From: Escherichia coli
GTDB taxonomy: Bacteria > Pseudomonadota > Gammaproteobacteria > Enterobacterales > Enterobacteriaceae
DNA: 64,000 bases
Assembly (NCBI RefSeq): GCF_003334765.1
Contig: NZ_QOWT01000007.1
Strand: one strand, 5' to 3'
The notes below the pieces were generated by a model that was not told where the DNA came from, searched no databases, and saw nothing but the letters and a program-made list of their open reading frames with translations. The first letter of the stretch is position 1; each line of letters opens with the position of its first letter. Both the position numbers and the translations under genes were made by a program. Below, in pieces: positions 21,512 through 34,029 of this stretch.

Positions 21512-21859
21512 ATGAAAATTTCCCGCCTCGGAGAAGCGCCTGATTACCGCTTCTCGCTGGCTAATGAGCGTACTTTTCTGGCGTGGATCCGTACTGCACT
21601 AGGATTTCTGGCGGCGGGGGTTGGGCTTGATCAACTTGCGCCAGATTTCGCCACGCCCGTCATTCGCGAACTGCTGGCGTTGTTGTTGTGTCTGTTTTCC
21701 GGCGGGTTAGCGATGTATGGCTACTTGCGCTGGTTACGCAATGAAAAAGCGATGCGTCTGAAAGAGGACCTGCCCTACACCAACAGCTTATTAATCATTA
21801 GCTTAATATTGATGGTCGTGGCGGTGATCGTTATGGGACTGGTGTTGTATGCCGGATAG
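21512..21859 (+). CDS. yidH: Inner membrane protein YidH (DUF202)
   Basis: 115-aa ORF with hydrophobic segments. Confidence 0.8.
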   Translation: MKISRLGEAPDYRFSLANERTFLAWIRTALGFLAAGVGLDQLAPDFATPVIRELLALLLCLFSGGLAMYGYLRWLRNEKAMRLKEDLPYTNSLLIISLILMVVAVIVMGLVLYAG

Positions 21860-22211
21860 CCGCAAAGCCAGACGCATTGCCGACCCAGGACTGCAGCCGG
21901 AGCGCACATCACTGGCGTGGTTTCGTACCATGCTGGGCTACGGCGCGTTGATGGCGTTGGCTATCAAACACAACTGGCACCAGGCGGGCATGTTATTCTG
22001 GATTTCGATTGGCATTCTCGCCATCGTGGCGCTGATCCTCTGGCACTACACCCGTAATCGCAATTTAATGGATGTCACGAATAGCGATTTTTCCCAATTT
22101 CACGTAGTCCGTGACAAATTTTTGATCTCCCTCGCGGTGTTATCTCTCGCAATACTGTTTGCTGTAACGCATATACATCAACTTATCGTATTTATTGAGA
22201 GAGTCGCATGA
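21849..22211 (+). CDS. yidG: Inner membrane protein YidG
   Basis: 120-aa ORF; overlaps the yidH 3' end by 11 nt; membrane segments. Confidence 0.8.
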   Translation: MPDSRKARRIADPGLQPERTSLAWFRTMLGYGALMALAIKHNWHQAGMLFWISIGILAIVALILWHYTRNRNLMDVTNSDFSQFHVVRDKFLISLAVLSLAILFAVTHIHQLIVFIERVA

Positions 22212-22705
22212 CAGGAAGTCAGGTCATTGATGCTGAAGAGGACAGGCATAAACTGGTTGTAGAGTACAAGGATGCTCTGCAACCTGCCGATTTTTATCAC
22301 AATTTCAAACAGCGGGGCATCCGCTCCGTACAGCTCATTCCCTATCTTGAATTTGATGACCGGGGCGATCTGACGGCCGCTTCGGTGACAGCAGAGCTGT
22401 GGGGGAAATTTTTAATTGCCCTGTTCGAGTGTTGGGTGCGGGCAGATATCAGTCGTATCTCGATTGAGCTTTTTGACGCCACCTTACAAAAATGGTGTGG
22501 CAGCGAAAACCCGCAACCGCGCTGTGACTGCCAGGCGTGCGACTGGCATCGCCTGTGCCCGCACGCTCGGCAGGAGACGCCAGACAGCGTGCTTTGTGCG
22601 GGCTATCAGGCGTTTTATTCTTACTCCGCACCGCATATGCGGGTGATGCGTGATCTGATAAAGCAGCATCGTTCTCCCATGGAGCTGATGACGATGCTGC
22701 GGTGA
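22208..22705 (+). CDS. yidF: YidF, Cys-rich protein resembling the C-terminal (SPASM-like) part of an anaerobic sulfatase maturase
   Basis: 165 aa; Cys cluster CDCQACDWHRLCP; no N-terminal radical-SAM CxxxCxxC motif; ATGA overlap with yidG. Confidence 0.75.
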   Translation: MTGSQVIDAEEDRHKLVVEYKDALQPADFYHNFKQRGIRSVQLIPYLEFDDRGDLTAASVTAELWGKFLIALFECWVRADISRISIELFDATLQKWCGSENPQPRCDCQACDWHRLCPHARQETPDSVLCAGYQAFYSYSAPHMRVMRDLIKQHRSPMELMTMLR

Positions 22706-22712
22706 CGTGCGC

Positions 22713-23897
22713 TTAAACGGGCTGCCCCTGATGCGACATCCGCGTCGCCAGCGGCAGCCAGCACAGCACGATCAACAATCCCATTAAGGTCATCAACAAC
22801 CCCAGGCTGCCCTGACCGGTTTGCGGCAACATCGCAGAGAGCGACGCCAGCACGCCGGAACCAATGTTTTGCAGACCGCCGACCAGCGCGCCAGCCGTGC
22901 CCGCCAGGAAGGGGAACGGCTCCATCGCGCCGCTGGTCGCCAGCGGAAACAGCATCCCGGCACCGAAAAAGAACAGCGCGGCGGGAACGAGCAGCGTCCA
23001 GACATTCATCACGCCAAACCAGTCGGGGATCCACATCAGCAAGCCAGCCAGCAGGCAGCAGATAACCGACTGCCACATTAACGTGGAGAAGCGTTTATTG
23101 GGACGTCCGGCAAACCATGCGCCAAAAAACGCTGCCGGAATCGGCAGAATAAACAAAATACTGACCGTCATACTGCTCAGCCCTAACACCGCGCCCATCA
23201 GCACGCCGGAGCAGGCTTCAAAGGCGGCAATCCCGGCCAGACCGCCAATCAGCATCAGCAAATAACAGTTAAAACCGCTGTTACCGAAAAGCGTTTTATA
23301 ACTGGTAAGCAGGCGCGTGCGCGGTGCATCGACCGGACGCGTTTCCGGCATCCAGCGGGCCATACTGAAGGTCACACCAGCACAAAGAACCAACAAAAAG
23401 AGATAACAGGCGCGCCAGTTCCACATCGTATCCAGCAGACCGCCGATTAGCGGTGCGAGCAACGGACTGACGAGAATCCCCATGTTTAACAGGCTGTTAG
23501 CATGGCGCAACTGTGTCCGTTCATATAAGTCTCGCGGTAAAGTACGCGCCATTACGCCGCCAACGCCGGTGCCCATCCCCTGCATCGCGCTGGCGGCAAT
23601 CAACACCGTCAAACTGGAGGTCGTGACCGCGACCAGCGTTGCCAGCATAAAAATGGACATTCCGACGAGGATCACCGGTCGGCGGCCCACGCGGTCGGAA
23701 ATCGGGCCATAAAACAGCTGTGAGACACCGTAAGTCAGCAGATAAGCGCCCATTACGCTCTGCACCGCCCCTTCACGGACGTTGAGATCGCGCGCCATAT
23801 CGGCAATAGCTGGAATATAAATGGTTTGCGCCATCTGACCGACGGCCACGAGTAATACCAACATCAATAACAAATTGACGTTTCTTTGCCTTTTCAT
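22713..23897 (-). CDS. emrD: Multidrug efflux MFS transporter EmrD
   Basis: 394 aa from MKRQRNVNLLLMLVLLVAVGQMAQTIYIPAIADMARDLNV; the track start is an upstream GTG. Confidence 0.9.
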   Translation of the reverse strand: MKRQRNVNLLLMLVLLVAVGQMAQTIYIPAIADMARDLNVREGAVQSVMGAYLLTYGVSQLFYGPISDRVGRRPVILVGMSIFMLATLVAVTTSSLTVLIAASAMQGMGTGVGGVMARTLPRDLYERTQLRHANSLLNMGILVSPLLAPLIGGLLDTMWNWRACYLFLLVLCAGVTFSMARWMPETRPVDAPRTRLLTSYKTLFGNSGFNCYLLMLIGGLAGIAAFEACSGVLMGAVLGLSSMTVSILFILPIPAAFFGAWFAGRPNKRFSTLMWQSVICCLLAGLLMWIPDWFGVMNVWTLLVPAALFFFGAGMLFPLATSGAMEPFPFLAGTAGALVGGLQNIGSGVLASLSAMLPQTGQGSLGLLMTLMGLLIVLCWLPLATRMSHQGQPV

Positions 23898-24063
23898 TAT
23901 CACGGATGCTTTTATAAAAATAATTAGAATAAGTCACTACGCATTCCCATAAATGCGGGAGAGGAATCTATCACATTGATGAATGTTAGCCAGATATACG
24001 CCAGGAATGGGGAATTGTTTAGCGGCAGAATATGTAAACAAAAGCGGCAATAAATGTTGCCGG

Positions 24064-24101
24064 GAGAGATGGTAGGGCGGATAAGATGCGTCAGCATCGC
24101 A
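24064..24101. repeat. REP element
   Basis: GTAGGGCGGATAAGATGCGTCAGCATCGCATCCGACAC, a REP-type imperfect palindrome. Confidence 0.4.
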
Positions 24102-24127
24102 TCCGACACCAACCCGCACGCTAAATA

Positions 24128-24157
24128 TAAAAGGGGAGCGGTTTCCCGCTCCCCTTT
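24128..24157 (-). terminator. Rho-independent terminator downstream of tisB
   Basis: On the minus strand, GGGGAGCGG ... CCGCTCCCC hairpin followed by TTTTATATTT. Confidence 0.55.
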
Positions 24158-24176
24158 GGTGCGACTTGAATCTGAA

Positions 24177-24266
24177 TTACTTCAGGTATTTCAGAACAGC
24201 ATCAAGCAGTTGCAGTGCTGCAACAATGAGTTTGAGGATAAGAATGGCGATATCCACCAGGTTCAT
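24177..24266 (-). CDS. tisB: Type I toxin TisB (29-aa membrane peptide, SOS-induced)
   Basis: Reverse-strand translation gives MNLVDIAILILKLIVAALQLLDAVLKYLK, the TisB sequence; below the 60-aa track cutoff. Confidence 0.9.
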   Translation of the reverse strand: MNLVDIAILILKLIVAALQLLDAVLKYLK

Positions 24267-24502
24267 ACGCGTCTCCTGTGGTTCAGGAGCACTGCCAGCT
24301 GACGTACCTTTCCGCTGCCTGTTGCCAGCTGTTGTGCACGCGGTATCTCAAGGAGAAACGTTGTGCTTGTTGACATAACACAGTGTGCTCACGCGGGGTT
24401 AAGGCGCTGACGGCACCACCCGTTTCAGCCAGGACTTAGTGCGCCGGGTAACGATGCGGCCCCCGCATAACACATTGCGTACAGTGATATTATAGAAGTT
24501 TA

Positions 24503-24518
24503 CTGTATAAATAAACAG
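24503..24518. promoter_or_regulatory. LexA box (SOS operator) for the tisAB / istR-2 divergent promoters
   Basis: CTGTATAAATAAACAG, a perfect CTGT-N8-ACAG match, about 240 bp upstream of tisB. Confidence 0.7.
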
Positions 24519-24591
24519 TAATATTTGGACAAAACGCAAACTGTGATCGATACTCAACTATGCACTAAATACGTCAAAATTCGTGCCGAAA

Positions 24592-24620
24592 TTGCGCGTT
24601 CTGCGCGGAACACGTATACT
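24592..24620 (+). promoter_or_regulatory. Candidate sigma-70 promoter of IstR-1
   Basis: TTGCGC (24592-97), 17-bp spacer, TATACT (24615-20), placing the start near 24627. Confidence 0.4.
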
Positions 24621-24626
24621 TTCAGT

Positions 24627-24701
24627 GTTGACATAATACAGTGTGCTTTGCGGTTACCAGCCGCAGGCGACTGACGAAACCTCGCTCCGGCGGGGTTTTT
24701 T
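24627..24701 (+). ncRNA. istR: IstR-1 antitoxin sRNA (about 75 nt)
   Basis: Starts GTTGACATAATACAGTGTGCT, a 20/21 direct-repeat copy of 24369-24389 in the tisAB leader (so antisense to the divergent transcript); ends in hairpin CCTCGCTCCGGCGGGG plus TTTTTT. Confidence 0.55.
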
Positions 24702-24830
24702 GTTATCTGCAATTCAGTACAAAACGTGATCAACCCCTCAATTTTCCCTTGCTGAAAAATTTTCCATTGTCTCCCCTGTAAAGCTGTGCTTGTATAAATA
24801 TTGTTAAACACAAAACCAACAAGGTCCCCA

Positions 24831-24929
24831 ATGACTACTTCCATGCTCAACGCAAAACTACTACCAACTGCGCCATCCGCCGCAGTGGTCGTCGTGCGTG
24901 TGGTGGTGGTCGTCGGCAATGCGCCGTAG
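24831..24929 (+). CDS. ivbL: ilvB operon leader peptide
   Basis: MTTSMLNAKLLPTAPSAAVVVVRVVVVVGNAP, a 32-aa Val/Leu-rich leader, 100 bp upstream of ilvB. Confidence 0.9.
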   Translation: MTTSMLNAKLLPTAPSAAVVVVRVVVVVGNAP

Positions 24930-24952
24930 GGACTGGAACAACACACGATTCC

Positions 24953-24987
24953 AAAACCCCGCCGGCGCAAACCGGGCGGGGTTTTTC
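24953..24987 (+). terminator. ilvBN attenuator terminator
   Basis: AAAACCCCGCCGGCGCAAACCGGGCGGGGTTTTTCG, hairpin plus T-run immediately after ivbL. Confidence 0.7.
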
Positions 24988-25034
24988 GTTTAAGCACCTC
25001 CCGGAAAGTCGGCCCAGAAGAAAAGGACTGGAGC

Positions 25035-26723
25035 ATGGCAAGTTCGGGCACAACATCGACGCGTAAGCGCTTTACCGGCGCAGAATTTATCGTTCATTTC
25101 CTGGAACAGCAGGGCATTAAGATTGTGACAGGCATTCCGGGCGGTTCTATCCTGCCTGTTTACGATGCCTTAAGCCAAAGCACGCAAATCCGCCATATTC
25201 TGGCCCGTCATGAACAGGGCGCGGGCTTTATCGCTCAGGGAATGGCGCGCACCGACGGTAAACCGGCGGTCTGTATGGCCTGTAGCGGACCGGGTGCGAC
25301 TAACCTGGTGACCGCCATTGCCGATGCGCGGCTGGACTCCATCCCGCTGATTTGCATCACTGGTCAGGTTCCCGCCTCGATGATCGGCACCGACGCCTTC
25401 CAGGAAGTGGACACCTACGGCATCTCTATCCCCATCACCAAACACAACTATCTGGTCAGACATATCGAAGAACTCCCGCAGGTCATGAGCGATGCCTTCC
25501 GCATTGCGCAATCAGGCCGCCCAGGCCCGGTGTGGATAGACATTCCTAAGGATGTGCAAACGGCAGTTTTTGAGATTGAAACACAGCCCGCTATGGCAGA
25601 AAAAGCCGCCGCCCCCGCCTTTAGCGAAGAAAGCATTCGTGACGCAGCGGCGATGATTAACGCTGCCAAACGCCCGGTGCTTTATCTGGGCGGCGGTGTG
25701 ATCAATGCGCCCGCACGGGTGCGTGAACTGGCGGAGAAAGCGCAACTGCCTACCACCATGACTTTAATGGCGCTGGGCATGTTGCCAAAAGCGCATCCGT
25801 TGTCGCTGGGTATGCTGGGGATGCACGGCGTGCGCAGCACCAACTATATTTTGCAGGAGGCGGATTTGTTGATAGTGCTCGGTGCGCGTTTTGATGACCG
25901 GGCGATTGGCAAAACCGAGCAGTTCTGTCCGAATGCCAAAATCATTCATGTCGATATCGACCGTGCAGAGCTGGGTAAAATCAAGCAGCCGCACGTGGCG
26001 ATTCAGGCGGATGTTGATGACGTGCTGGCGCAGTTGATCCCGCTGGTGGAAGCGCAACCGCGTGCAGAGTGGCACCAGTTGGTAGCGGATTTGCAGCGTG
26101 AGTTTCCGTGTCCAATCCCGAAAGCGTGCGATCCGTTAAGCCATTACGGCCTGATCAACGCCGTTGCCGCCTGTGTCGATGACAATGCAATTATCACCAC
26201 CGACGTTGGTCAGCATCAGATGTGGACCGCGCAAGCTTATCCGCTCAATCGCCCACGCCAGTGGCTGACCTCCGGTGGGCTGGGCACGATGGGTTTTGGC
26301 CTGCCTGCGGCGATTGGCGCTGCGCTGGCGAACCCGGATCGCAAAGTGTTGTGTTTCTCCGGCGACGGCAGCCTGATGATGAATATTCAGGAGATGGCGA
26401 CCGCCAGTGAAAATCAGCTGGATGTCAAAATCATTCTGATGAACAACGAAGCGCTGGGGCTGGTGCATCAGCAACAGAGTCTGTTCTACGAGCAAGGCGT
26501 TTTTGCCGCCACCTATCCGGGCAAAATCAACTTTATGCAGATTGCCGCCGGATTCGGCCTCGAAACCTGTGATTTGAATAACGAAGCCGATCCGCAGGCT
26601 TCATTGCAGGAAATCATCAATCGCCCTGGCCCGGCGCTGATCCATGTGCGCATTGATGCCGAAGAAAAAGTTTACCCGATGGTGCCGCCAGGTGCGGCGA
26701 ATACTGAAATGGTGGGGGAATAA
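25035..26723 (+). CDS. ilvB: Acetolactate synthase I, large (catalytic) subunit
   Basis: 562-aa ThDP-dependent enzyme; sequence recognised as IlvB. Confidence 0.95.
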   Translation: MASSGTTSTRKRFTGAEFIVHFLEQQGIKIVTGIPGGSILPVYDALSQSTQIRHILARHEQGAGFIAQGMARTDGKPAVCMACSGPGATNLVTAIADARLDSIPLICITGQVPASMIGTDAFQEVDTYGISIPITKHNYLVRHIEELPQVMSDAFRIAQSGRPGPVWIDIPKDVQTAVFEIETQPAMAEKAAAPAFSEESIRDAAAMINAAKRPVLYLGGGVINAPARVRELAEKAQLPTTMTLMALGMLPKAHPLSLGMLGMHGVRSTNYILQEADLLIVLGARFDDRAIGKTEQFCPNAKIIHVDIDRAELGKIKQPHVAIQADVDDVLAQLIPLVEAQPRAEWHQLVADLQREFPCPIPKACDPLSHYGLINAVAACVDDNAIITTDVGQHQMWTAQAYPLNRPRQWLTSGGLGTMGFGLPAAIGAALANPDRKVLCFSGDGSLMMNIQEMATASENQLDVKIILMNNEALGLVHQQQSLFYEQGVFAATYPGKINFMQIAAGFGLETCDLNNEADPQASLQEIINRPGPALIHVRIDAEEKVYPMVPPGAANTEMVGE

Positions 26724-26726
26724 GCC

Positions 26727-27017
26727 ATGCAAAACACAACTCATGACAACGTAATTCTGGAGCTCACCGTTCGCAACCATCCGGGCGTAATGACCCACGT
26801 TTGTGGCCTTTTTGCCCGCCGCGCTTTTAACGTTGAAGGCATTCTTTGTCTGCCGATTCAGGACAGCGACAAAAGCCATATCTGGCTACTGGTCAATGAC
26901 GACCAGCGTCTGGAGCAGATGATAAGCCAAATCGATAAGCTGGAAGATGTCGTGAAAGTGCAGCGTAATCAGTCCGATCCGACGATGTTTAACAAGATCG
27001 CGGTGTTTTTTCAGTAA
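26727..27017 (+). CDS. ilvN: Acetolactate synthase I, small (regulatory) subunit
   Basis: 96 aa with an ACT domain, directly after ilvB. Confidence 0.95.
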
Positions 27018-27092
27018 CCGCTCAAGGCTTGAACAACATCGCGCTTATCGTTAAGGTAAGCGCGTATTTTTTTTACCCGCCAGGACAAGACC

Positions 27093-27683
27093 ATGATCAC
27101 CGTTGCCCTTATAGACGATCACCTCATCGTCCGCTCCGGCTTTGCGCAGCTGCTGGGGCTGGAACCTGATTTGCAGGTAGTTGCCGAGTTTGGTTCGGGG
27201 CGCGAGGCGCTGGCGGGGCTGCCGGGGCGCGGTGTGCAGGTGTGTATTTGCGATATCTCCATGCCCGATATCTCCGGTCTGGAGCTGCTAAGCCAGCTGC
27301 CGAAAGGTATGGCGACGATTATGCTCTCCGTTCACGACAGTCCTGCGCTGGTTGAGCAGGCGCTTAACGCGGGGGCACGCGGCTTTCTTTCCAAACGCTG
27401 TAGCCCGGATGAACTCATTGCTGCGGTGCATACGGTTGCCACGGGCGGCTGTTATCTGACGCCGGATATTGCCATTAAACTGGCATCCGGTCGTCAGGAC
27501 CCGCTAACCAAACGTGAACGCCAGGTGGCGGAAAAACTGGCGCAAGGAATGGCGGTGAAAGAGATTGCCGCCGAACTGGGCTTGTCACCGAAAACGGTAC
27601 ACGTCCATCGCGCCAATCTGATGGAAAAACTGGGCGTCAGTAACGACGTAGAGCTGGCGCGCCGCATGTTTGATGGCTGGTGA
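27093..27683 (+). CDS. uhpA: Response regulator UhpA (NarL/FixJ family)
   Basis: 196 aa with receiver domain and C-terminal LuxR-type HTH. Confidence 0.95.
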
Positions 27684-29185
27684 TGAAGACGTTGTTCTCC
27701 CGCTTAATTACCGTTATTGCCTGCTTTTTTATCTTCTCTGCCGCATGGTTTTGCCTGTGGAGTATCAGCCTGCATCTGGTTGAGCGCCCTGATATGGCGG
27801 TGCTGTTATTTCCGTTTGGTCTGCGTCTGGGGCTAATGCTGCAATGCCCGCGCGGATACTGGCCCGTATTGCTGGGCGCGGAGTGGCTGCTGATTTACTG
27901 GCTAACGCAGGCGGTCGGTTTAACCCATTTTCCGTTATTGATGATCGGTAGTTTACTGACGTTACTGCCCGTAGCGCTGATCTCGCGCTATCGCCATCAG
28001 CGTGACTGGCGCACCTTGCTGTTACAGGGGGCGGCGTTAACGGCGGCGGCGTTGTTGCAGTCGCTGCCCTGGCTTTGGCACGGCAAAGAGTCGTGGAATG
28101 CGCTGTTGCTGACTTTAACTGGCGGCCTGACGCTGGCCCCGATATGTCTGGTGTTCTGGCACTATCTCGCCAATAACACCTGGCTGCCGCTCGGTCCGTC
28201 ACTGGTTTCTCAGCCAATCAACTGGCGCGGGCGACATCTGGTCTGGTACTTGCTGCTGTTTGTTATCAGTCTCTGGCTCCAGTTGGGATTGCCGGACGAA
28301 CTGTCGCGCTTTACGCCATTCTGTCTGGCGCTGCCGATTATCGCGCTGGCCTGGCACTATGGTTGGCAAGGGGCGCTGATTGCGACGTTGATGAACGCCA
28401 TCGCGCTGATCGCCAGTCAAACCTGGCGCGATCATCCGGTGGATTTATTGCTCTCGCTGCTGGTGCAAAGTCTGACAGGGTTGTTGCTTGGCGCTGGCAT
28501 CCAGCGGTTGCGTGAACTTAACCAGTCGCTGCAAAAGGAACTGGCGCGCAATCAGCATCTGGCTGAACGGTTGCTGGAAACCGAAGAGAGCGTGCGCCGT
28601 GATGTGGCGCGTGAGCTGCATGATGATATCGGTCAGACCATCACTGCTATTCGTACTCAGGCGGGCATTGTTCAGCGGCTGGCGGCAGATAACGCCAGCG
28701 TGAAGCAGAGCGGGCAGCTCATCGAACAACTATCGCTGGGCGTTTACGACGCGGTGCGCCGTTTGTTGGGTCGGTTACGTCCGCGCCAGTTGGATGATCT
28801 CACCCTGGAGCAGGCCATCCGCTCACTGATGCGGGAAATGGAGCTGGAAGGGCGCGGTATTGTCAGCCATCTCGAATGGCGAATCGATGAATCAGCGTTA
28901 AGCGAAAACCAGCGCGTGACGCTGTTTCGTGTCTGCCAGGAAGGGCTGAACAACATTGTGAAACATGCTGATGCCAGCGCGGTCACCCTGCAAGGCTGGC
29001 AGCAGGATGAACGGTTGATGCTGGTTATTGAAGACGATGGCAGCGGTTTGCCGCCGGGTTCCGGGCAACAAGGTTTTGGCCTCACCGGAATGCGCGAGCG
29101 CGTAACGGCGCTGGGTGGCACATTACACATTTCCTGTCTGCACGGCACGCGTGTCAGCGTTTCTCTACCTCAACGCTATGTCTAA
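27683..29185 (+). CDS. uhpB: Sensor histidine kinase UhpB
   Basis: 500 aa from the ATG at 27683, overlapping the uhpA stop TGA (TGATG); N-terminal TM segments, H-box ELHDDIGQ, HATPase_c domain. Confidence 0.9.
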
Positions 29186-29194
29186 GGTTTGATG

Positions 29195-30514
29195 ATGTTG
29201 CCGTTTCTGAAAGCGCCTGCCGATGCGCCATTAATGACTGATAAATATGAAATTGATGCCCGCTATCGCTACTGGCGTCGGCATATTCTGCTGACCATCT
29301 GGCTGGGTTACGCGCTGTTTTACTTCACGCGGAAAAGTTTTAACGCCGCCGTACCAGAAATCCTTGCTAACGGCGTGCTCAGCCGTAGCGATATCGGCCT
29401 GTTAGCGACCCTGTTTTACATTACCTATGGCGTGTCGAAGTTTGTCTCCGGCATTGTCAGCGATCGCTCAAATGCCCGTTATTTTATGGGGATAGGGCTT
29501 ATCGCCACGGGCATTATCAACATTCTGTTTGGCTTCTCGACGTCGCTATGGGCGTTTGCCGTGCTCTGGGTGCTGAACGCCTTTTTCCAGGGCTGGGGTT
29601 CACCGGTGTGTGCGCGTCTGTTAACGGCCTGGTATTCACGTACCGAGCGCGGCGGTTGGTGGGCATTATGGAACACGGCGCATAACGTCGGCGGCGCACT
29701 CATTCCCATTGTGATGGCAGCGGCTGCGCTGCATTACGGCTGGCGTGCCGGGATGATGATTGCTGGTTGTATGGCGATAGTCGTGGGGATTTTTCTCTGC
29801 TGGCGGCTACGCGATCGCCCGCAGGCGTTAGGTTTACCGGCGGTCGGTGAATGGCGACACGACGCGCTGGAAATTGCTCAACAACAAGAAGGGGCAGGGT
29901 TGACGCGTAAAGAGATCCTCACCAAATATGTGTTGCTGAATCCGTATATCTGGCTGCTTTCGTTTTGCTATGTGCTGGTCTATGTGGTCCGGGCGGCGAT
30001 CAACGACTGGGGCAATTTGTATATGTCCGAGACACTGGGCGTCGATCTGGTCACGGCGAATACGGCAGTGACGATGTTTGAACTGGGCGGATTTATCGGT
30101 GCGCTGGTAGCCGGTTGGGGCTCGGACAAATTGTTTAACGGCAACCGAGGGCCGATGAATTTGATTTTCGCCGCCGGAATTTTGCTTTCAGTCGGCTCCC
30201 TGTGGCTGATGCCATTTGCCAGCTACGTGATGCAGGCAACCTGCTTCTTCACCATTGGTTTTTTTGTCTTTGGCCCACAGATGTTAATCGGTATGGCGGC
30301 GGCAGAGTGTTCCCACAAAGAGGCGGCAGGGGCGGCGACGGGGTTTGTCGGCTTGTTTGCTTATCTGGGGGCGTCGCTTGCTGGTTGGCCGCTGGCGAAA
30401 GTACTCGATACCTGGCACTGGAGCGGATTTTTTGTGGTTATCTCTATCGCCGCCGGGATTTCCGCACTGCTGTTACTGCCCTTTTTGAACGCCCAGACAC
30501 CGCGCGAAGCGTGA
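29195..30514 (+). CDS. uhpC: Membrane glucose-6-phosphate sensor UhpC (MFS, UhpT paralog)
   Basis: 439 aa from MLPFLKAPADAP; two in-frame starts upstream (TTG, ATG). Confidence 0.9.
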   Translation: MLPFLKAPADAPLMTDKYEIDARYRYWRRHILLTIWLGYALFYFTRKSFNAAVPEILANGVLSRSDIGLLATLFYITYGVSKFVSGIVSDRSNARYFMGIGLIATGIINILFGFSTSLWAFAVLWVLNAFFQGWGSPVCARLLTAWYSRTERGGWWALWNTAHNVGGALIPIVMAAAALHYGWRAGMMIAGCMAIVVGIFLCWRLRDRPQALGLPAVGEWRHDALEIAQQQEGAGLTRKEILTKYVLLNPYIWLLSFCYVLVYVVRAAINDWGNLYMSETLGVDLVTANTAVTMFELGGFIGALVAGWGSDKLFNGNRGPMNLIFAAGILLSVGSLWLMPFASYVMQATCFFTIGFFVFGPQMLIGMAAAECSHKEAAGAATGFVGLFAYLGASLAGWPLAKVLDTWHWSGFFVVISIAAGISALLLLPFLNAQTPREA

Positions 30515-30541
30515 TGCATCTCACCTTTTCACTTCATATCC

Positions 30542-30572
30542 GGCAAAACTAAGAAATTTTCCAGGTTTTGCC
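30542..30572. promoter_or_regulatory. UhpA binding site in the uhpT promoter
   Basis: Inverted repeat GGCAAAAC-N15-GTTTTGCC centred about 64 bp upstream of the predicted start (-10 TACAAT at 30609-30614). Confidence 0.55.
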
Positions 30573-30651
30573 TGGACGCTATCTCAGGCCTGATTTGCTG
30601 CTGATTTTTACAATGCATGCCTCACGCAGGTATTCATTTCAGGAGTAACCC

Positions 30652-32043
30652 ATGCTGGCTTTCTTAAACCAGGTTCGCAAGCCGACCCTGGACCTTCCGC
30701 TCGAAGTGCGGCGCAAAATGTGGTTCAAACCGTTCATGCAATCCTACCTGGTGGTCTTTATCGGCTACCTGACGATGTACCTGATTCGCAAGAACTTTAA
30801 CATCGCGCAGAACGATATGATTTCGACCTACGGGTTGAGCATGACGCAGCTGGGGATGATCGGCCTGGGTTTCTCCATCACTTATGGCGTGGGTAAAACG
30901 CTGGTTTCCTACTACGCCGACGGCAAAAACACCAAACAATTCCTGCCGTTCATGCTGATCCTCTCTGCTATTTGTATGCTGGGCTTCAGTGCCAGTATGG
31001 GCAGCGGCTCGGTTAGCCTGTTCCTGATGATTGCCTTCTACGCCTTAAGCGGCTTTTTCCAGAGTACCGGCGGTTCGTGCAGTTACTCCACCATCACCAA
31101 ATGGACGCCGCGTCGTAAACGCGGGACATTCCTCGGTTTCTGGAATATTTCTCACAACCTTGGCGGTGCAGGCGCAGCAGGTGTGGCGCTGTTCGGGGCA
31201 AATTACCTGTTCGATGGCCATGTCATCGGCATGTTTATCTTCCCGTCGATTATCGCGCTGATTGTCGGTTTTATCGGCCTGCGTTACGGCAGCGACTCCC
31301 CGGAATCTTATGGCCTCGGCAAAGCTGAAGAACTGTTCGGCGAGGAGATCAGCGAAGAGGACAAAGAGACAGAATCTACCGATATGACCAAGTGGCAGAT
31401 CTTTGTTGAGTATGTGCTGAAAAACAAAGTGATCTGGCTGCTGTGCTTCGCCAACATTTTCCTCTATGTGGTACGTATTGGTATCGACCAGTGGTCAACC
31501 GTATACGCGTTCCAGGAACTGAAACTCTCTAAAGCGGTGGCGATTCAGGGCTTTACGCTGTTTGAAGCTGGTGCGCTGGTCGGTACGCTGCTGTGGGGCT
31601 GGCTCTCTGACCTGGCGAACGGTCGCCGTGGCCTGGTGGCCTGCATCGCGCTGGCGCTGATTATCGCCACGCTCGGTGTGTATCAACATGCCAGTAACGA
31701 ATATATCTATCTGGCTTCTCTCTTTGCGTTGGGTTTCCTGGTCTTTGGCCCGCAATTGTTGATTGGTGTGGCTGCTGTTGGCTTTGTACCTAAAAAAGCG
31801 ATTGGCGCTGCCGATGGTATTAAAGGCACCTTTGCTTACCTGATTGGTGACAGCTTTGCCAAGTTAGGTCTGGGAATGATTGCCGATGGGACGCCGGTAT
31901 TCGGCCTTACCGGCTGGGCAGGCACCTTCGCCGCGCTGGATATCGCCGCGATTGGTTGTATCTGCCTGATGGCGATAGTGGCGGTAATGGAAGAACGCAA
32001 AATCCGCCGCGAGAAAAAAATTCAGCAGTTGACAGTGGCATAA
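30652..32043 (+). CDS. uhpT: Hexose-6-phosphate:phosphate antiporter UhpT
   Basis: 463-aa MFS protein; sequence recognised as UhpT. Confidence 0.95.
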
Positions 32044-32061
32044 ACGTAACTGGTGACTTTT

Positions 32062-32087
32062 GCCCGGCATGACGCCGGGCTTTTTTT
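32062..32087. terminator. Hairpin terminator between convergent uhpT and ade
   Basis: GCCCGGCATGACGCCGGGC followed by TTTTTTT. Confidence 0.65.
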
Positions 32088-32088
32088 A

Positions 32089-33855
32089 TTATTCCGTGAC
32101 TTCCAGCGTAGTGAAGGCAAACTTCTCGCCATCAAATAGCCCCTGACTGGTTAGTTTTAGCGCGGGGATCACTGGCAGAGAAAGAAACGCCATCTGAATA
32201 AACGGCTCATCGGGTAACGGACCGCATTCACGGGCGGCGGCTTTCAAGGCGTCAATTTGTTCCGCCAGCGACTGCGCCGTGTCGGTGCTCATCAGCCCGG
32301 CAATGGGTAACGGCAGATGACTTTGTACCTGGCCGTTACGTACCACGCACAGCCCGCCGCCATCCTGAATCACCTGATTGACCGCCAGCGCCATCTCTTC
32401 GGCACTGCGACCGATCACCACAATATTATGGCTGTCATGGCTGACCGTCGCAGCCAGCGCACCTTCATTCAGTCCAAAGCCGCCAAGCAAACCACAAGCC
32501 GGAGCCAGCCGTTGCCCGTAACGCTCAAGTACGGCAATAAAGCTCACATCATCGCGATCAAAACCATTTTCGCTGTAGACGCTGGAGTGGGAGTGCGTAA
32601 TCAATTCGTTATGGATGACGTCAATGACCCGATAGCGTTTTCCGGGCGTAAATTGCAGGGCAAAGTCGCTGGCGGAAACTGGCTGGCGGGCAATGGTGTT
32701 GCCATATGGCGGAGCGGATTGTGCCAGTCTCGCCGACTCTTCCGCCTGTAAGGTTTGCGCATCAATCGGCTCGCCTTTCACCAGTACCTGCTGCACCGTG
32801 ACCTTACGCGCATCGCTCAACAGGACGATATCGGCCTGCTTGCCGGGTGCCAGTAAGCCGAGGTGATTCAGACCAAAGTGGCGCGCCGTCGACCAGCTGG
32901 CGACGCGATATGCCACATGCAGCGGCACATTGTGTTGTTCGATCAGGCGGCGAATTAAGGCATCGATGTGTCCTTCATGGGCGATCTCCCACGGGTTACG
33001 GTCATCGGTACAGAGCATGCATTGCGGGCTGTTAAATTCGTTGATCAACGGTGCCAGCGCGTTGAGATTGCGGGCAGCGGACCCTTCGCGGATCATCAAC
33101 GACATGCCGAGTTGTAATTTCCGGCGTCCTTCTTCCAGCTGATAACTTTCGTGGCAGTTTTCAATACCCGCAGTAATATAGGCGTTAAGTTCTTTACCAC
33201 CCAAACCCGGGCAGTGACCGTCCAGCGTCAGGTGGCGAAATGCATCCAGTTTATCGAGCAGCGCATTCTGCCCGCTAATTACGCCAGGGTAGTCCATCAT
33301 TTCTGCAAGGCCGGTAACCTGCGGATGGTCCCGCCAGGCGAGCATCTGTTCAAGGGTAAAACTGGCACCGTTAACATCGCAGCCTTCCAGGGCGGGTACG
33401 CAAGAGCTGACCTGTAAGTACTGGTTTTGCCTTGCCTGTTCGGCACAGCGGGCAAACCAGGCGAATCCGGCTTCGCCCATCACGTTGACGATTTCATGAG
33501 GGTCGCAAATAACGGTCGTCAGGCCGCGCGGCAGGGTAGCGGTTTCAAAAGTGACCGGCGTCATCATGCTGGATTCAATATGCAGGTGAGCATCAATAAA
33601 CCCTGGCACCGCCGTTGCGCCGCGAGCATCAATCCGCTGCAAAGCCGGAGCATCAGTGTATTCTGCGCCAACACCGGCAATGTAACGTCCTTTAATCACA
33701 ATTGGGCCGGAAATTTCTCCGCCATTGATCAGGTCGAGAATAGAGACATTATCAATAATATAATCGGCAACAGCGTCGCCACGGGAAACGGCTAACAATT
33801 CCTGGTATTCAGCCCGGCTAATGTGATGAAATTTATGGTTAATAGAATTATTCAT
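32089..33855 (-). CDS. ade: Adenine deaminase
   Basis: 588-aa amidohydrolase-family ORF recognised as Ade (YicP). Confidence 0.9.
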
Positions 33856-34029
33856 ATTTTTCTCATTTTGATTTTATCAATTTGATTATTATTTATCATA
33901 AAGAAACGTCGCGAGATTATTAAAGAATATCCATTAATGTGCAATTGAAATGTGATAATTATCACTGAACCGTTGTTGTCATTTGTTTTACAAAAGCAAG
34001 GGATTAAATCTCCTCCAATGGACAAAAAA

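Follow-up and report, generated by a model that had tools for sequence, protein, structure and literature searches.

The 137-bp gap between uhpC and uhpT of Escherichia coli holds a perfect inverted repeat, GGCAAAAC-N15-GTTTTGCC, which raises the question of whether it is the DNA through which the response regulator UhpA activates uhpT. A preliminary description of the sequence had claimed this, relying on the distance between the repeat and the start predicted from a -10 element TACAAT. Here the window, meaning the whole stretch of 64,000 nucleotides that was analysed (contig NZ_QOWT01000007.1), was compared with E. coli K-12, with other complete E. coli genomes and with uhpT promoters of other species. 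The product of uhpT is a glucose-6-phosphate-inducible transporter that also carries fosfomycin inward, and its promoter is relevant to fosfomycin susceptibility and to glucose-6-phosphate biosensors. External glucose-6-phosphate is sensed by UhpC, upon which UhpB phosphorylates UhpA, and phospho-UhpA binds the promoter.

The uhp locus and the geometry of the uhpT promoter

The uhp genes were identified by NCBIfam equivalog or subfamily models together with the RefSeq annotation (Table 1), and the locus also includes ilvBN. The UhpA protein joins a receiver domain to a helix-turn-helix output domain of the LuxR/GerE type, and it scores with the models for NarL, FixJ and UvrY. From uhpA to uhpT, the window shows no mismatch over 4951 nt to K-12 MG1655 (NC_000913.3), intergenic DNA included, and the 152 nt before the uhpT ATG are likewise free of differences. 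The region is present in 5417 of the 5426 complete E. coli genomes, and the 59 nt spanning both UhpA regions (strong and weak, see below) are identical in 5115 of these 5417 (94%). K-12 is presumably the strain background in which the uhpT promoter was dissected; its UhpA regions were reportedly worked out by the Kadner laboratory, in papers by Merkel (1992 and 1995), Dahl (1997), Olekhnovich (1999 and 2002) and Chen (2000). The sequence does not differ from the K-12 uhpT promoter; comparing 80 species does no more than sharpen the picture of the bases under constraint. The gain over a promoter that has been dissected since the 1990s is modest, namely an 80-species footprint of constrained bases. 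The RefSeq annotation marks no feature over the repeat itself.

The repeat is present exactly as had been described, and its symmetry about position 30557 continues into longer arms of 15 nt with 80% complementarity. Allowing at most two mismatches, its pattern is unique in the window, with one match against 0.02 expected in what was a post hoc test. Inverted repeats with perfect arms of 8 nt and at most 20 nt between them are common in the window, numbering 74 compared to about 23 in Markov-1 random sequences; seven of the 74 have a spacer of exactly 15, and a single one starts within the uhpC-uhpT gap. Because such repeats are so common, the repeat taken alone is suggestive. It is more than a chance occurrence, and this follows from its position, its conservation and the literature, not from its rarity.

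The position of the repeat can be read against a CAP (CRP) site further upstream, cGTGAtgcatcTCACc, besides which the promoter has no other CAP-like sequence. Matches to the CAP motif were not above chance (18 found against 25.7 expected), and the assignment is therefore based on the conservation of the half-sites and on the literature, in which CRP acts at one inverted repeat centred at -103, some 30 bp upstream of the UhpA-binding DNA, and uhpT expression requires UhpA (PMC5352689). UhpA was found to bind two adjacent regions of the uhpT promoter, a strong one upstream and a weak one downstream, with phosphorylation stimulating the binding and a single cAMP-CRP site lying upstream of both (PMC4790336). 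The window carries the same DNA as the UhpA regions of E. coli K-12 uhpT, and its order of CAP site, strong region and weak region matches this layout (PMC4790336, PMC5352689). The stop codon of uhpC, TGA (30512-30514), falls within GTGA, the upstream half of the CAP site, and this overlap is retained in nearly all of the 80 promoters compared, including those encoding a longer UhpC C-terminus.

Setting the CAP centre at -103.5 would place the start of transcription near 30621, so that TACAAT would span -12 to -7 and the repeat -79 to -49. TACAAT was found where it had been reported, and a start at 30621, 7 nt past this hexamer, puts the repeat centre 30557 at -64, in agreement with the distance of about 64 bp claimed earlier. 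The CAP site, the dyad and the -10 element all agree on a start at 30621. A dyad at -64 is said to have been described already by Merkel et al. in 1992. The hexamer TACAAT is invariant in all 80 uhpT promoters (2.00 bits). A sigma-70 scan yielded no -35/-10 pair and no usable -35 element in the uhpT promoter, and AGGCCT stands 17 bp ahead of TACAAT, inside or beside the weak region. Directly before the -10 element, GCTGATTTT (-21 to -13) comes close to the UhpA regions in conservation and is not an extended -10 TG motif. A second copy of CTGATTT, at 30590-30596, lies in a variable stretch and is specific to E. coli.

Table 1. Features of the uhp locus and of the uhpT promoter in the window (positions relative to the start refer to 30621; conservation is across 80 uhpT promoters)
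Feature	Window position	Strand	Relative to start	Conservation	Basis or remark
uhpA	27093-27683	+			NCBIfam NF007685/NF008649/NF008661 set (uhpABC) above cut-offs, RefSeq; regulator
uhpB	27680-29185	+			NCBIfam model above cut-off, RefSeq; kinase
uhpC	29195-30514	+			NCBIfam model above cut-off, RefSeq; glucose-6-phosphate sensor
CAP/CRP site cGTGAtgcatcTCACc	30510-30525 (centre 30517.5)		-103.5	half-sites GTGA/TCAC 1.88 bits, mean majority frequency 0.94; inner 6 nt 0.90 bits	half-site conservation, PMC5352689
Stretch from CAP site to repeat				1.00 bits
Inverted repeat, very probably the strong UhpA-binding region	30542-30572		-79 to -49, centre -64		sequence, CAP-relative position, PMC4790336
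Left arm GGCAAAAC	30542-30549
N15 spacer	30550-30564
Right arm GTTTTGCC	30565-30572
Conserved core AAAACTAAGAAATTTTCCnGGTT / AAAACTAAGAAATTTTCCaGGTT	30545-30567		-76 to -54	1.77 bits, 18/23 columns at least 95%
Gap between blocks			-53 to -51	weak
Block CCTGGACGCTGTCTCAGGC / CCTGGACGCTATCTCAGGC, fitting the weak UhpA region	30571-30589		-50 to -32	1.66 bits, 11/19 columns at least 95%
Variable stretch			-31 to -22	0.49 bits, 0/10 columns at least 95%
GCTGATTTT	30600-30608		-21 to -13	1.63 bits
GCTGATTTT followed by -10 TACAAT	30600-30614 (hexamer 30609-30614)	+			conservation
uhpT transcription start, inferred	30621 (K-12 3,847,198)	+	+1		from CAP -103/-103.5 and -10 spacing
uhpT	30652-32043	+			NF007107 equivalog, 832 bits, RefSeq; hexose-6-phosphate:phosphate antiporter, regulated gene

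Conservation and symmetry of the two UhpA regions

A scan with the UhpT protein, taking one genome per species, retrieved 80 loci from Escherichia, Salmonella, Citrobacter, Klebsiella, Enterobacter, Kluyvera, Pantoea, Buttiauxella, Dickeya, Brenneria and one Aeromonas. In 77 of 81 loci (the 80 retrieved plus the E. coli locus), uhpC lies directly upstream of uhpT. Alignment of the window with 79 of the retrieved loci gave 80 sequences, from Enterobacterales and the one Aeromonas, which align without gaps from about -85 to -7. Two blocks stand out in this alignment, a core inside the repeat and a second block at -50 to -32, and the contrast between the core and the variable stretch at -31 to -22 (Table 1) is that of a sequence under purifying selection. 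In position, the two blocks agree with the strong and the weak region, reportedly footprinted at -80 to -50 (30541-30571) and -50 to -32 (30571-30589), respectively; the limits of the strong region reportedly go back to Dahl (1997) and to Olekhnovich and Kadner (2002). Together with the -10 element and the CAP site at -103.5, the strong region and the neighbouring block at -50 to -32 are conserved as a single module without gaps, in which a -35 hexamer is missing.

All of these parts (CAP site, the two UhpA blocks, -10 element) are present in the Aeromonas locus, even though uhpC does not precede uhpT there. As the module is retained here despite the different placement of uhpC and uhpB, the promoter module travels with uhpT. 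In this genome (Aeromonas sp. RU39B, locus L079), UhpT is 91% identical to that of E. coli, and uhpC and uhpB are found downstream in inverted orientation, which suggests either that the locus was acquired horizontally or that the genome is mislabelled.

Further analysis of the dyad revealed that its most constrained bases are not those of the 8-nt arms. The exact arms occur in 6 of the 80 sequences, two to three mismatches being typical, and the N15 "spacer" is more conserved (1.73 bits) than the arms (1.45 bits). The core of the dyad consists of two blocks, AAAC/GTTT (pairs 5-8) and GAAA/TTTC (pairs 12-15), which are complementary in 74-99% and 80-100% of the sequences, respectively. By contrast, pairs 9-11 are complementary in 1-17%, with pair 9 being a T·G wobble in most sequences, and the outer pairs 1, 3 and 4 in 61%, 51% and 19%. 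In the true register of the dyad 72% of the cells pair, compared to at most 57% when the partner is slid. The dyad that had been described thus stands, whereas its best-conserved bases had been taken for a spacer, and its perfect arms belong to the Escherichia/Salmonella lineage only.

The block at 30571-30589 possesses a dyad of its own, CCTG-N10-CAGG, in which pairs 2-5 are 90-96% complementary. It is adjacent to the strong region and reaches the -35 position of a promoter without a -35 hexamer; it fits the known weak UhpA region, overlapping the -35 position and replacing the missing element. Two Dcm sites (CCWGG) lie inside the UhpA regions, CCAGG at 30561-30565 and CCTGG at 30571-30575; the first of them reads CCCGG in 76% of the other species and is therefore not a Dcm site there.

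Sequence identity with K-12, the literature and the conservation, taken together, make it highly probable that the repeat is the core of the high-affinity UhpA region. The claim that the repeat has the geometry of UhpA-dependent uhpT activation is borne out by the gene context, the K-12 identity, the published layout (PMC4790336, PMC5352689) and the conservation. The site and its placement hold, whereas the weak region (30571-30589) and the CAP site had been left out of the preliminary description. A literature search for high-throughput UhpA binding data gave nothing usable. Overall, the UhpA site is real, correctly placed and conserved across enterics, and it is already known textbook biology.

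On this arrangement, UhpA would begin at the strong region and then bind cooperatively to the weak one, which stands at the -35 position and from which UhpA would recruit RNA polymerase. CAP-cAMP bound upstream would boost the promoter and could not replace UhpA. Dependence on the C-terminal domains of RpoA and RpoD, together with strict spacing, was reportedly described by Olekhnovich and Kadner in 1999 and by Chen and Kadner in 2000. Similar to other promoters with a distant CAP site (beyond about -90), the uhpT promoter has CAP centred at -103.5 as an enhancer only, UhpA being essential; it differs from them in that the co-activator is a response regulator, located at about -80 to -32, which replaces the -35 element. 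Sites of the NarL/FixJ family likewise show dyad symmetry and multiple adjacent copies. Compared to the 7-2-7 site of NarL, however, the uhpT dyad has the form AAAC-N3-GAAA-N-TTTC-N3-GTTT, with half-site centres about 11-12 bp apart.

Alternative readings of the repeat

The distribution of conserved bases admits another description of what UhpA recognizes. Instead of an 8-N15-8 repeat, UhpA may read four alternately oriented CYNRGA-like hexamers spaced by about one helical turn, a possibility that we entertain while leaning against it. The hexamers would be CTAAGA (-72 to -67), TCCAGG (-61 to -56, reverse complement CCTGGA), CCTGGA (-50 to -45) and CTCAGG (-38 to -33, reverse complement CCTGAG), with centres at about -69.5, -58.5, -47.5 and -35.5, that is, 11-12 bp apart. 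Such an array would let two UhpA dimers bind head to head along the same face of the helix, and the perfection of the outer GGC/GCC arms in Escherichia and Salmonella would be an accident of that lineage. All four hexamers fall on conservation peaks, and both the excess of conservation in the spacer over the arms and the poor complementarity of outer pairs 1, 3 and 4 speak for such an organization, as do the near-perfect long palindromes that run through the spacer in Aeromonas and Dickeya, e.g. GAACTAGGAA-AAA-TTCCTAGTTC. A CCTGRR-type consensus is said to have been proposed by Olekhnovich and Kadner in 2002. However, the blocks AAAC/GTTT lie inside the arms, and their high complementarity argues that part of the arms is functional; moreover, CTAAGA, in the left half of the strong region, is the poorest match to the other hexamers. 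Equally tentative is the picture of the functional and ancestral UhpA element as a longer two-tier palindrome, with a half-site of approximately AAACYNGGAAA, accompanied by a second dyad at -50 to -32, the four hexamers arising from both.

The symmetry of the repeat might also act in RNA, as a hairpin in uhpC read-through transcripts that serves as a terminator or stabilises the uhpABC 3' end. The plus-strand RNA does fold through the repeat (z = -2.37), and uhpC ends 28 nt upstream of it. However, the stem is not followed by a U-tract on the plus strand, no terminator was called there, the loop is more conserved than the stem, and two to three of the eight stem pairs are broken in most genera. 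Covariation over the 15 dyad pairs in the 80 sequences is no higher than in shuffled alignments (0.032 against 0.031, with 197 of 500 shuffles as high). An intrinsic terminator, with a G+C-rich stem, a U-tract and compensatory changes, was thus not found at the repeat. The symmetry is held by the conservation of each column, not by compensatory changes, which argues for a protein site; judged from the sequences, the dyad resembles DNA bound by a protein rather than a hairpin, and we reject the RNA reading as extremely improbable.

An operator of another regulator, namely FNR, a second CRP or a NarL-type 7-2-7 protein, is dismissed with the same firmness: FNR has a modest positive effect on uhpT expression and causes a weak shift of the promoter in gel assays, but neither an FNR footprint nor an FNR consensus was found at uhpT (PMC5352689), the FNR pattern with at most three mismatches gives background matches only (at 30511, which is the CAP site, and at 30533), and the NarL pattern TACYYMT-N2-AKRRGTA with at most three mismatches has no match in 21708-33928.

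A second dyad at the inferred uhpT start and features of the transcript

Apart from the UhpA regions, another dyad spans the -10 element of uhpT and the inferred start, at 30612-30638 in the window. In most genera (loci L005-L080) it takes the form ATGCCTGC-CATTC-GCAGGTAT, occupying -8 to -1 and +6 to +13. Among its 45 distinct sequences, 92.4% of the cells pair, compared to 89.1% after shuffling (none of 500 shuffles as high). Both sides are changed in nine cells, a count reached in none of 500 shuffles, and these compensatory changes come mostly from one clade (L065 and L071-73) and represent few independent events. At one position G·U, A-U and G-C pairs all occur, and pairing amounts to 16-47% of the cells in slid registers. 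In Escherichia the dyad is shifted, with all 11 bp formed in E. albertii; in the window, 9 of 11 positions pair (30612-30622 with 30628-30638), and the RNA fold is unremarkable (-7.4 kcal/mol, z = -1.06). As its left arm precedes the inferred start, this dyad would fold only in uhpC read-through RNA. Its role may be to shield uhpT from transcription coming through from uhpABC, or to make the 3' end of the uhpABC mRNA more stable. A search for literature on this dyad found none.

Escherichia sp. E1V33, E. whittamii, Raoultella terrigena and Enterobacter sp. 10-1 have a uhpT leader extended by about 60-75 nt, with the long leaders at about 2400-2500 in loci L002 and L003 and about 2390-2500 in L035 and L036. 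Rfam gave no match in two loci with long leaders. The inserted sequence (…AAGTTGCAGGAAGGCGGCA…GCCTGAAGTATGAAGGGAAA) may represent a short ERIC-type intergenic repeat, to judge from its appearance. At the other end of the transcript, the small RNA UhpU (annotated as b4829 in K-12) corresponds to 31824-32089 on the plus strand, where it covers the 3' portion of uhpT together with the 3' UTR. A FliA-dependent internal promoter in uhpT codons 379-392 and processing by RNase E have been described (PMC12704781).
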